A DNA stretch of 53,473 nucleotides from a virus: positions 1 to 53,473 of the IMG/VR virus record IMGVR_UViG_3300025678_000003. One strand, written 5' to 3'. Within the stretch, counting starts at the first letter, position 1; each line of letters starts with the position of its first letter. The position numbers and the translations under genes were made by a program. This document shows, in pieces, positions 33,273-35,929 of the stretch. A model generated the notes under the pieces. That model did not search any database. It was not told where the DNA came from and saw nothing but the letters and a program-made list of their open reading frames with translations.

Positions 33273-33466
33273 GGCTGGCCGTCCGTCAACCCGCCAACCG
33301 CAGACGCCAGAGCCCGCCGCTCCTGCGCCCACGCCAGCGAGATCGCATGGCCGATCAACAGCCGCGCACGCGCCGCCGATGTGGGCGCCACGTAGCCAAA
33401 CACCCCAAACGGCACCGAGCGAAAGAACAGCGCACAGGGAATCGAAGTCATGCCTGGCAGCGTCAT
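33269..33466 (-). CDS. Hypothetical protein (65 aa)
   Basis: Starts by overlapping the DUF4406 stop and ends by overlapping the next ATG. Confidence 0.4.
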   Translation of the reverse strand: MTLPGMTSIPCALFFRSVPFGVFGYVAPTSAARARLLIGHAISLAWAQERRALASAVGGLTDGQP

Positions 33467-33915
33467 ACACCGGCCTCCACGTTGTCGAAATGCTCAAACT
33501 TGGTCGCGCCGCTCCATTCGCCATAGCGAATGCCACGCAGCAACGTCACCGGCGGAAACGGAATATCACCCCACAGCTCGCGAGGCAGCACATCCTCCAG
33601 CATCACGATCTGCAGGCCGCAATCGCGCGCCGTCGATAGCTCCGAATGCGCGCCATCGCTGTACTGCCAGCCCGGCAACAGCACAATCACGTCGCAATAG
33701 GTCAGCTCGCGCGTATCAACACGAATGCACTCATGCCAATAGGCACGCACCTCTCGCGGCGAAGCACCGGGGCACGGGCGAGTACCGCCTGGGTTTAATT
33801 CCGCCGGGTTCACCACCTCAATGCCACGCAGTCGCAGCGCCGCTGCAACCGCCATGAACGCCGGAAAGTTCTCGTCCGGCAGACCACTCATCGGCCCCGA
33901 GATATACGCCCTCAT
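33463..33915 (-). CDS. DUF4406 (nucleoside 2-deoxyribosyltransferase-like) protein (150 aa)
   Basis: MRAYISGPMSGLPDENFPAF...NPAEL...CDVIVLLPGWQYSDGAHSEL is the characteristic DUF4406 pattern. Confidence 0.7.
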   Translation of the reverse strand: MRAYISGPMSGLPDENFPAFMAVAAALRLRGIEVVNPAELNPGGTRPCPGASPREVRAYWHECIRVDTRELTYCDVIVLLPGWQYSDGAHSELSTARDCGLQIVMLEDVLPRELWGDIPFPPVTLLRGIRYGEWSGATKFEHFDNVEAGV

Positions 33916-34325
33916 AGCGCACCCCCACGCACCGCGCCAGCCTGGGCGGCCAACTGGTTGATGTCCACACCCTGGGCTTTCAGCGTAGAGACCAGCCGCA
34001 CGATCGTCTGCATCGCCTGTGCACCCTCGGCAATCGCACGCTGCGCCAGATCCTCCTGCGTCAGCGGCACGGGCGCGGTGTAACCCAACGTCTGCGCCAC
34101 ATAGTTCGCGTAGTAGTGCACCCCCTTCTCGCGGCCAATGCGCACCAGTTGAATCACCTGCTCCGGGTTCAACCGCTCATCCTTGTTCGGGTTCAGGCAG
34201 TTGCGCAGCCACGTCGCCGCCGCATCGGGCTCCTTGTCGCCGCGCAGGGCCGCCCCCACCGCCTTGTAACCACCGATCGCCTGGACAGTGGCCACCAGCA
34301 CCTCGTCCACCGTCTCGTAAAACAT
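33912..34325 (-). CDS. Hypothetical protein (137 aa from the ATG; the track start at 34370 is TTG)
   Basis: ATG at 34325 (MFYETVDEVL...). First gene after the leader terminator. Confidence 0.5.
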   Translation of the reverse strand: MFYETVDEVLVATVQAIGGYKAVGAALRGDKEPDAAATWLRNCLNPNKDERLNPEQVIQLVRIGREKGVHYYANYVAQTLGYTAPVPLTQEDLAQRAIAEGAQAMQTIVRLVSTLKAQGVDINQLAAQAGAVRGGAL

Positions 34326-34478
34326 CGCCTGTTGCTGCACCTTGCACCTCTCGCTGTTAGCGGCCGGCAACGCCGTTCCCCGCCGTTCCCCAAATCAGAG
34401 AACCGCAAGGAGTGACATCACCCAGCCCGAAAAACAAAATGGCCACATGAGCACACACCCATGCAGCCACACCACCAA

Positions 34479-34512
34479 TAAAAAAAGCCCCACGCAGGCC
34501 ATGCGTCAGGGC
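34479..34512 (-). terminator. Rho-independent terminator within the early-left leader
   Basis: The minus strand reads GCCCTGACGCA-TGGCC-TGCGTGGGGC followed by TTTTTTTATT. Confidence 0.6.
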
Positions 34513-34789
34513 ACAGGTCAGCGCGCTGCGTTGCAGTGGAACAGCGCGCTGAATGACAAATCGAAGCCCGGCCGAGCGCTTGGTGCGGTGCCGGGCGCAA
34601 CCGCTGTTGAAGGAGGCGCTACGCATTCCCGTAGACCTAACCGGGGGCAGAATCGCAGCAGGGCTCACGCGCAGCACAACGCTCTGACTTTGTGCGCGGG
34701 AGTAATGGCCACCCACTGCCGGGCGGCGGCCAATGACGGGGCGAGCGTTCCTACAATGGGGACTCCACTCACCCACCATAGGAACGCTC

Positions 34790-34969
34790 ATGGAAAACGA
34801 AGCACCAATCGACGCCCCAAAGATTGTCTTAGCGCTTTTCGGCGCGCTATTGCGACAACCATCAATCAATGCCGAAGCGCTCGGCGAAGACTTCTTCTCA
34901 TCGCTCGCAAGGCACAGCCCCGCGCTTGCGGAAGAGATACAAGCACTACTCACCGATCACCCTCATTAA
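34790..34969 (+). CDS. Small hypothetical protein (59 aa), antisense to the early-left leader
   Basis: AGGAAC, 5 nt, then the ATG at 34790. The product MENEAPIDAPKIVLALFGALLRQPSINAEALGEDFFSSLARHSPALAEEIQALLTDHPH looks protein-like. Its 3' end overlaps the convergent 60-aa gene by 20 nt. Confidence 0.4.
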   Translation: MENEAPIDAPKIVLALFGALLRQPSINAEALGEDFFSSLARHSPALAEEIQALLTDHPH

Positions 34970-35132
34970 GGGCGCTAGACCGAGGCAGAAACACACCTGC
35001 CTCCTTCAACTCATTCACCAGCGCGCGCGCCAGCCGCCTACTTTCCTCAGCATCAAACGGCGGCGGCTTCATCGCCTCCGCGATCACCGGCCGGAGCAAA
35101 CGTGCAGCACAACGAATCAGCCAGCGCTTCAT
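34950..35132 (-). CDS. Small hypothetical protein (60 aa)
   Basis: The ATG at 35132 overlaps the cro-like stop (ATGA). Confidence 0.5.
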   Translation of the reverse strand: MKRWLIRCAARLLRPVIAEAMKPPPFDAEESRRLARALVNELKEAGVFLPRSSALNEGDR

Positions 35133-35488: not shown

Positions 35489-35929
35489 ATGGAATCCGAC
35501 GCATCACAACTCGCCGCCATCCTTGCCGCCGATCTCAGCAAAGGCAGCGGCATTGATCGCGCCGCACTTGCCCAAGAATGCGGCATCAGCAATCAGGCCA
35601 TCTCTAACTGGATCAAGACCGGGCGCATCAAGAAGCGCTACCTGCCCGTCGTCGCCAAACACACCGGAAAGCCGCTTTCGCGCTACCTCCTGGACAGCGC
35701 GCAACCCTACCCACTCAATCCGCCCAGCCAACACGCGGCACAACAAGACCCTGCGCCACACTATGAAAGCCAGTCACGGGAGGGGCGCGCTCGTCAGCGG
35801 ACACTGAAAGCGATAGAGGAGCTCGACATTGAAGAACTTGAACTGTTGGCAGAAGACATTGAACGCGACGCGGCCAGACATCGACGCTTGCGCCTGCGTC
35901 GCACCGACCGGCCCACCATCAAGGCTTAA
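35489..35929 (+). CDS. CI-like HTH repressor candidate without a peptidase domain (146 aa)
   Basis: Track ORF trimmed to the ATG at 35489. HTH: DRAALAQECGISNQAISNWIKTGRI. Divergent from cro. Confidence 0.6.
   Translation: MESDASQLAAILAADLSKGSGIDRAALAQECGISNQAISNWIKTGRIKKRYLPVVAKHTGKPLSRYLLDSAQPYPLNPPSQHAAQQDPAPHYESQSREGRARQRTLKAIEELDIEELELLAEDIERDAARHRRLRLRRTDRPTIKA

Follow-up and report, generated by a model that had tools for sequence, protein, structure and literature searches.

The interval between the cro module and the next gene to the left in this viral DNA is occupied by a 198-codon open frame, here called orfX, which seems to be kept open by selection while the amino acid sequence it encodes apparently is not. 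We refer to the whole stretch analysed, all 53,473 nt of it, as the window. Two predicted intrinsic terminators lie in tandem within the frame, and a convergent promoter motif stands close to the start of a CII-like regulator gene. Our preferred reading, held tentatively, is that the interval forms a tR1-like barrier ahead of CII that is read through by ribosomes coupled to RNA polymerase on orfX, combined with a promoter of the pRE/pE kind.

Genes flanking the interval

The immunity region of the window has a lambdoid-style layout. A repressor-like HTH gene (35489-35929, plus strand) is divergent from cro (35413-35129, minus strand; Pfam YdaS_toxin/P22_Cro). Downstream of cro lies a 60-aa gene (34950-35132, minus strand), with a homologue in contig L004 (42% identity, E 7e-8); its stop is at 34950, as originally reported, and its TGA overlaps the GTG of orfX. 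The lower GC content attributed to the interval is modest, at 0.575-0.65 in most 200-nt bins of 34326-34949 against roughly 0.62-0.73 in the coding sequence leftward. A tRNA/tmRNA scan of the region found none, and the region has no DNA match among GenBank phages.

The gene beyond the interval (33912-34340, minus strand) starts either at GTG 34340, which has the ribosome-binding site GAGAGG, or at ATG 34325. The original prediction took it for a replication gene. We classify it as a CII-type regulator instead, because it matches PHROG 101 'CII-like transcriptional activator' (E 3e-9) and because the eight best specific PDB matches of its AlphaFold model (pLDDT 93.6) are all entries for the transcriptional regulator of phage 186 (6VLI, 6VPE and 6VMH), weak as these matches are (E 0.04-0.3, TM 0.4-0.63). 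Searches of Pfam, NCBIfam and PDB sequences with the protein gave no match, and the sole match among GenBank phage proteins, also weak, was gp19 of Xylella phage Xfas53. In the relatives, DUF1376 and lambda-P-like replication genes are found 3-4 kb beyond the CII-like gene. The gene that directly follows it in the window (33463-33915) is DUF4406/nucleoside 2-deoxyribosyltransferase-like (Pfam E 5e-22) and overlaps the CII-like stop by 4 nt; the same pairing occurs in the W-lineage relatives L003, L014 and L015.

Relatives of the interval

Relatives were gathered with the CII-like protein as anchor, followed by inspection of the genomic contexts of its homologues; these contexts cover part of the CII homologues, roughly 60 further ones lying outside the sample. 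The region is carried by ten distinct sequences in six lineages: W (the window, L003, L014 and the partial L012), L001/L016, L004/L017-19, L020, L021 and L023. All the relatives are metagenomic contigs, their sources being an activated-sludge metagenome (ENA), JGI metagenomes and Logan read assemblies. One further contig, L015 (ENA ERZ27257446 k141_497938), is 100% identical to the window over a 6.6-kb stretch. A DNA-motif scan of metagenomes added only L012, and a peptide-pattern scan of a genome collection with CII returned nothing. The sole match to the stem A motif (see below) in the genome collection, L013 (3150-3260), lies in a Chloroflexota MAG contig and was rejected as fortuitous; it adjoins long C and G homopolymer runs, which are apparently an assembly artefact.

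One CII relative, L024 (2400-2500), is without the spacer: the cro stop leads directly into the promoter motif, whose -35 adjoins two direct repeats (TCGGACA), and then CII. Since L024 passes from cro directly to CII, the block of orfX, hairpins and terminators has the look of an insertion into a minimal module, or else L024 has that of a deletion. The contigs L017 and L018 have identical CII genes, with zero nucleotide differences, and differ at 23 positions in orfX, which suggests that the spacer evolves faster than its CII neighbour or is exchanged by recombination. The spacer of the L001 lineage contains in its 5' part (L001:2440-2500 and L016:40-105) a tRNA-like T-arm and acceptor fragment (GGTGGGTTCGAGTCCCGCCCTCGGTGCCC), to which the window aligns loosely (GGTGGGTGAGTGGAGTCCCC). 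ARAGORN found no tRNA at this fragment, which may be what remains of a site of insertion or integration.

A reading frame kept open

The interval was originally described as having no credible minus-strand ORF. This description does not hold: orfX (34357-34953, minus strand) covers the entire gap. Its GTG at 34953 overlaps the TGA of the 60-aa gene in the sequence GTGA (34953-34950), and the frame ends 16 nt before the GTG of the CII-like gene. It is called as a gene in public assemblies (P0005-P0007). The alternative start codons, ATGs at 34791 and 34779, lack a Shine-Dalgarno sequence and lie at or in a hairpin of -33 kcal/mol, so that translation must be assumed to enter at the GTGA (34953), antisense to the small plus-strand gene ORF59 described below.

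The homologous frames contain no in-frame stop over 97-199 codons in any of the six lineages, against 1-8 stops in nearly all the other phases of the same stretches, and the phase of orfX is constant along the nucleotide alignment of the lineages. Where a sense gene lies directly upstream, the start of the frame overlaps its stop or is within 26 nt of it, the junctions being GTGA, ATGA, TTGA or a start 9 nt after the stop. The exceptions are L003, whose frame begins about 300 nt past cro and antisense to a small gene, and L016, where the contig ends. The stop of the frame falls between -23 and +60 nt relative to the CII start. All seven within-lineage indels are multiples of three (3, 30, 9, 3, 6, 3 and 3), and the between-lineage indels are of 3, 12, 3, 6, 3 and 9 nt, plus one compensated +1/+2 pair. 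An unbroken frame, indels in threes and coupling of both ends to the adjacent genes are the marks of a translated ORF. In addition, A is depleted at the third codon position in every lineage (0.06-0.11).

In dinucleotide shuffles, the probability that any frame would be open is 0.08-0.48 per lineage. Assuming independent lineages, the joint probability is about 1e-5 or lower; the assumption is only approximate because there are six or seven lineages, all of them metagenomic. The antisense frame that shares these codon boundaries is likewise open in all lineages.

An amino acid sequence without apparent constraint

In six close pairs of sequences, differences in orfX are distributed over the three codon positions as 89/95/106 (p 0.46), whereas the CII gene of the same pairs, used as a control, gives 101/73/199 (p 5e-16). 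Of 209 changed codons in orfX, 49 (23%) are synonymous and 160 non-synonymous. The BLOSUM score per codon is 1.1 in-frame against 0.6-0.9 out-of-frame, which we judge to be no better in-frame; the corresponding values for the CII control are 3.3 and 2.5 in-frame against 0.6-1.9 out-of-frame. By these measures CII clearly behaves as a protein-coding gene under purifying selection, and orfX does not.

L004 reads the most conserved nucleotide block, CCGYACCAAGCG, in another frame. The conserved residues of orfX (FFI, HAAIVFF and SVIxG) fall exactly on the U-runs, promoter motif and repeats described below, so that a function at the nucleotide level accounts for them. The frame belongs to no Pfam, PHROG or other family, and no homologue outside the W lineage was found among 5.8 billion proteins. 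A hydrophobic C-terminal stretch of 45 residues is found in all lineages. Taken together, the alignments suggest that the frame of orfX is under selection and that its product apparently is not. An ORF conserved in relatives, which the original prediction had named as evidence against itself, is borne out for the open frame, present in all lineages, but not for the amino acid sequence.

Two predicted terminators inside the frame

The hairpin with its A7/T7 run that had been noted at 34479-34512 is present. This element, T1, is a GC-rich hairpin of -15.2 kcal/mol (z -2.9) followed by U7 on the minus strand. A second hairpin, T2 (34428-34470, minus strand), which the original prediction had missed, is the stronger of the two: 14 bp, rich in G.U pairs, -20.6 kcal/mol (z -6.1), and followed by UUUUGUUUUU. 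Both have the G+C-rich hairpin and the U-run on the transcribed strand that characterize Rho-independent terminators, and are predicted to end transcripts.

The pairs of hairpin and U-run of T1 and T2 are found in all ten sequences that bear the insert, with stem sequences that differ between lineages. T2 keeps 10 pairs across nine sequences, with some compensated changes and many G.U pairs, the latter indicating that it works on the cro-sense RNA. The suggestion of a tR1-like intrinsic terminator between the cro module and the downstream genes is thus upheld in every relative that carries the region, which implies that expression of the downstream genes would need read-through. T1 and T2 sit in the last third of orfX. 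Just as the leader ORF extends through the terminator hairpin in attenuators of the pyrBI type, orfX reads through T1 (..LRGAFFIGG..) and T2 in all lineages.

Hairpins upstream of the terminators

Three further hairpins precede the terminators on the minus strand. Stem B (34519-34551), whose 10-bp arms CAGCGCGCTG are at 34519-28 and 34542-51 as described earlier, is a hairpin of 10-12 bp with an energy of -22 kcal/mol (z -4.9); its changes in L014 and L010 are all G.U pairs on the minus strand. Stem A (34566-34596; -19.7 kcal/mol, z -2.6) is the 7-bp stem GCCCGGC/GCCGGGC, with arms at 34566-72 and 34590-96 in agreement with the earlier description, and closes the conserved loop CCGCACCAAGCG. 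In this stem G-C is replaced by A-U in L004, and in L020 the stem is wholly different around a similar loop. Helix 4 (34655-34702) shows compensating stem changes between lineages around the conserved loop GUCAGAGCGUUG, kept as GUCAGnnCG; its energy is indistinguishable from that of shuffled sequences (z -0.14).

The region had been called highly structured. This is right for local hairpins, which beat shuffles, but not for the 326-nt core as a whole, the minimum free energy of which does not differ significantly from shuffles (z -1.05 on the minus strand and +0.30 on the plus strand). In RNAalifold, 95% of the cells of the core are paired, and the consensus energy is -77, against -35 for a CII coding control and -51 for the antisense strand. 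The number of compensated pairs is modestly higher than in the coding control (18 against 14). This covariation looked striking and was set aside as structural proof, the control having nearly as many such pairs; for that reason we claim local hairpins and a higher consensus energy, and no global fold. Comparative folding, which had been proposed as a check on the original prediction, thus identifies several conserved cro-sense hairpins, with compensated pairs modestly above the control.

The covariance scan proposed alongside it matched no Rfam family, either in permissive scans of the region and of L001 or in a scan of the whole window at gathering thresholds. A sub-threshold match to NsiR1 (17.8 bits against 39) was discarded, as it merely reflects the shape of a terminator.

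A putative convergent promoter and its repeats

A sigma-70-like promoter motif lies on the plus strand at 34412-34449, convergent to the transcripts from the cro promoter. It consists of the -35 hexamer GTGACA (34412-17), a 17-nt spacer and the -10 hexamer CAAAAT (34435-40), followed by a G+C-rich discriminator and a conserved ATG at the predicted +1 (34447). No other promoter-like site was found between 33500 and 36000. The same order of -35 hexamer, 17 nt, yAnAnT, G+C-rich hexamer and ATG is common to the plus strand of 11 sequences. The yAnAnT motif is found in all 11, including L024, which is without T2; a GACA/TACA-type -35 stands exactly 17 nt from it in 10 of the 11, and the ATG comes exactly 6 nt after it in every case.

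Two tandem 10-bp repeats and one inverted copy are arranged around AAATCA at 34372-34405, about -42 to -76 of the promoter. The tandem pair is the gccgttcccc doublet reported previously and occupies 34372-34391. The relatives have the same layout, a 7-9-nt motif around AATCA present twice in tandem and once inverted. Its sequence varies from one CII lineage to another and is identical in the window and L003, whose CII proteins are 96% identical and whose repressors differ; the repeats thus track the CII lineage and not the repressor. No second copy of the repeat pair, such as a pI- or paQ-like site would provide, was found elsewhere in the window. The repeats are candidate binding sites for the CII-like protein. 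In these 11 sequences, geometry and motifs are those of a CII-dependent establishment promoter such as lambda pRE or 186 pE, and the convergent promoter is likely the counterpart of one of these; by analogy, the CII-like protein would bind the repeats and the promoter would be active when it does.

A small gene opposite the start of the frame

The first 160 nt of the gap are also occupied on the plus strand by ORF59 (34790-34969), a further ORF overlooked in the original description. This small gene of 59 aa has the ribosome-binding site AGGAA 5 nt before its ATG, and it is convergent with the 60-aa gene and overlaps the 3' end of the latter. In a phmmer search of the local ORF set, it matched only positional equivalents in the same orientation, in L017, L004 and L005 (E 3e-4 to 3e-3); BLASTP did not recover these matches. 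ORF59 has no Pfam or PHROG family and no match among GenBank phages.

A 47-nt inverted repeat (34744-34790; -33.3 kcal/mol, z -7.5) with 11-bp outer arms GAGCGTTCCTA/TAGGAACGCTC, identical in L003, covers the ribosome-binding site of ORF59 on the plus strand and ATG 34779 on the minus strand. The repeat, with a stem of 18 bp, extends over a CATG in which the ATG of ORF59 (34790) and the minus-strand ATG (34791) stand back to back. L003 has the same repeat, ribosome-binding site and ATGGAAA, followed by an unrelated ORF of 82 aa. In this comparison, the inverted repeat with its ribosome-binding site behaves like a portable regulatory cassette for a small gene in antisense orientation. Some relatives have two such antisense-oriented genes between cro and CII: two copies of the ORF59 family in L005:2704-3316, and in L017:1065-1833 one member of the family (1065-1277) and an 80-aa gene outside it. 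This suggests that the cro-CII interval is a hot spot for small moron-like genes.

Interpretation and alternative explanations

On the reading that we favour, drawn by computation from a handful of metagenomic lineages, the region would be a temperate phage's regulatory spacer between cro and CII. Early transcription from the cro promoter would proceed leftward through cro and the 60-aa gene and then through orfX, which would be coupled translationally to the 60-aa gene and stops just before the CII-like gene. T1 and T2 in tandem would be positional analogues of lambda tR1. With a ribosome close behind RNA polymerase, neither hairpin would be able to form, and transcription would continue into CII and the early and replication genes beyond it; transcripts that are uncoupled or untranslated would end at T1 or T2. 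Because the frame stays open while the amino acids drift neutrally, the selected property is likely to be the traffic of ribosomes and not the product. In an E. coli reporter study, translating ribosomes repress intrinsic terminators located late in a coding region (PMC4824070), which makes coupling across orfX the most economical reading. The convergent promoter, just beyond T2, would send transcripts back through the spacer and ORF59 toward the repressor gene, and T1 and T2 might also shield it from oncoming polymerases. Ribosome-dependent read-through is what we infer from this arrangement; the terminators could instead be simply leaky and constitutive. The conserved hairpins and loops of stem A and helix 4 count against coupling, since they are left unexplained if ribosomes cross the region. 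The two ATGs without a Shine-Dalgarno sequence, the modest covariation, the small set of lineages and the open antisense frame also weigh against it.

Several other explanations have to be weighed against this one. orfX might be a real small protein, very fast-evolving or diversifying, with a basic N-terminal and a hydrophobic C-terminal part, in which case T1 and T2 would be merely leaky terminators or RNA-stability elements inside a coding sequence. The maintained frame, the operon-style coupling, the depletion of A at third positions, the calls by gene finders and the hydrophobic 45-residue C-terminus found everywhere all agree with such a protein; yet the six close pairs show no excess of third-position or synonymous changes, in-frame similarity does not exceed out-of-frame similarity, the conserved residues sit on U-runs, promoter motif and repeats, the block CCGYACCAAGCG is in another frame in L004, and neither a family nor a distant homologue was found. 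We therefore regard a protein as unlikely. An ORF read on the other strand is far harder to accept: the conserved ATG at the predicted +1 (34447), exactly 6 nt past the -10 in 11 of 11 sequences, could start a leaderless plus-strand ORF of which the minus-strand frame is the shadow, and the antisense frame with the same codon boundaries is indeed open from this ATG in all lineages. Such a frame would run for at least 288 codons in the window and L014, crossing ORF59 in a different frame and cro in antisense, and would have no consistent end, whereas the minus-strand frame has consistent operon-like boundaries; it is also without conservation at the protein level, and we give this explanation very little credence. 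We give still less to a plain non-coding spacer in which the open frame and hairpins arose by chance in G+C-rich sequence. Long spurious ORFs are common at 61-65% GC, the energy of the whole region is unexceptional (z -1.05) and compensated pairs occur in the coding control too, but chance does not readily produce a homologous phase open in six lineages (joint shuffle probability about 1e-5 or lower), indels that keep the frame, or terminator hairpins that recur with unrelated stems.

The original prediction favoured a cis-acting RNA antiterminator of the put type or a discrete non-coding RNA. In phage HK022, putR is located after cro and ahead of the first terminator on the pR transcript; put elements are about 70 nt long, form two stem-loops and bind the zinc-binding domain of the RNA polymerase beta' subunit (PMC9378689). 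Upstream hairpins that bind RNA polymerase and make it terminator-resistant in this way would agree in position with putR (PMC9378689) and would explain the cro-sense hairpins with conserved loops and compensating stem changes, with two strong terminators to pass and neither an N-like protein nor a boxA recognized. On the minus strand of the region there is no boxA match with one mismatch or fewer, and overall matches are below chance. Against an element of this kind, Rfam, which may not include a put model, gives no match; the structure extends over about 230 nt in 4-5 hairpins, where a compact element would have two stems in 70 nt; in the distant L021 only about 100 nt precede the terminators, and no counterpart of stem A or helix 4 was recognized there; and an element acting as RNA only would leave the conservation of the frame unexplained and would be unfolded by ribosomes. 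We consider it improbable; nothing indicative of a put-like or discrete RNA was found, and the 3' 100 nt of the region fits a convergent promoter with activator sites better. Translational coupling across orfX accounts for more of the observations than a put-like RNA, a fast-evolving protein or a leaderless ORF.

Comparison with known systems

The arrangement is closest to that of cro-tR1-cII-pRE in lambda. In both, a terminator stands on the early lytic transcript between cro and a CII-type regulator, CII and the replication genes need read-through, and a convergent promoter, here putatively CII-dependent, adjoins the start of CII. The lambda terminator tR1 depends on Rho, and N acting at nutR overcomes it. 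Here, in contrast, there would be two tandem intrinsic terminators, enclosed in an open frame that is conserved while its amino acids are unconstrained, and no N was recognized in a non-exhaustive search.

The likeness to attenuators of the E. coli pyrBI type, seen so far at the level of sequence, is that a leader ORF passes through the terminator and that translation, not the product, would decide termination. The terminators are late in the ORF, a position at which ribosomes repressed them in the reporter study (PMC4824070). Compared with the pyrBI type, the frame is longer (97-199 codons against a few tens) and contains two terminators; neither regulatory codons nor a pause site were identified, and the system is phage-borne and would gate a lysogeny regulator.

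With HK022 putR the region shares its place downstream of cro on the pR transcript and ahead of terminators, and putR likewise acts without a dedicated antitermination protein (PMC9378689). It differs from putR in that neither our own inspection nor Rfam recognized a compact two-stem element of about 70 nt, and in the conserved reading frame that spans it.

A pR promoter convergent with pRE or pE is a known arrangement in lambda and 186 (PMC6593788). Like these, the promoter described here is convergent, lies at the upstream edge of the CII gene, points toward the repressor and has repeated sites upstream (PMC6593788). It is about 1 kb from the lytic promoter, compared with 340 bp in 186, and differs from pRE and pE in having two tandem sites and one inverted site, centred near -45 to -72, and a recognizable GACA -35.

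Biological significance

For annotation, the region calls for caution: gene callers report a hypothetical protein that is without protein-level constraint, and a reader working from the sequence alone called the same region non-coding.

A more specific proposal, of which we are more doubtful than of coupling as such, is that this 'sequence-free' ORF of 100-200 codons acts as a sensor, ribosome-polymerase coupling over two terminators setting the level of the CII-type regulator. Were this so, the lysis-lysogeny decision would be tied to the translational state of the host without an antitermination protein, and a single sequence would be put to triple use as an ORF, as conserved RNA hairpins and as a convergent establishment promoter.

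If ribosome-coupled read-through does operate here, environmental temperate phages would make the expression of CII and the replication genes conditional without an N-type protein or a put-type RNA. The spacer would then offer an unusually clear example from nature of selection acting on translation itself and not on its product, and would provide a testable link between the translational capacity of the host and the lysogeny decision.
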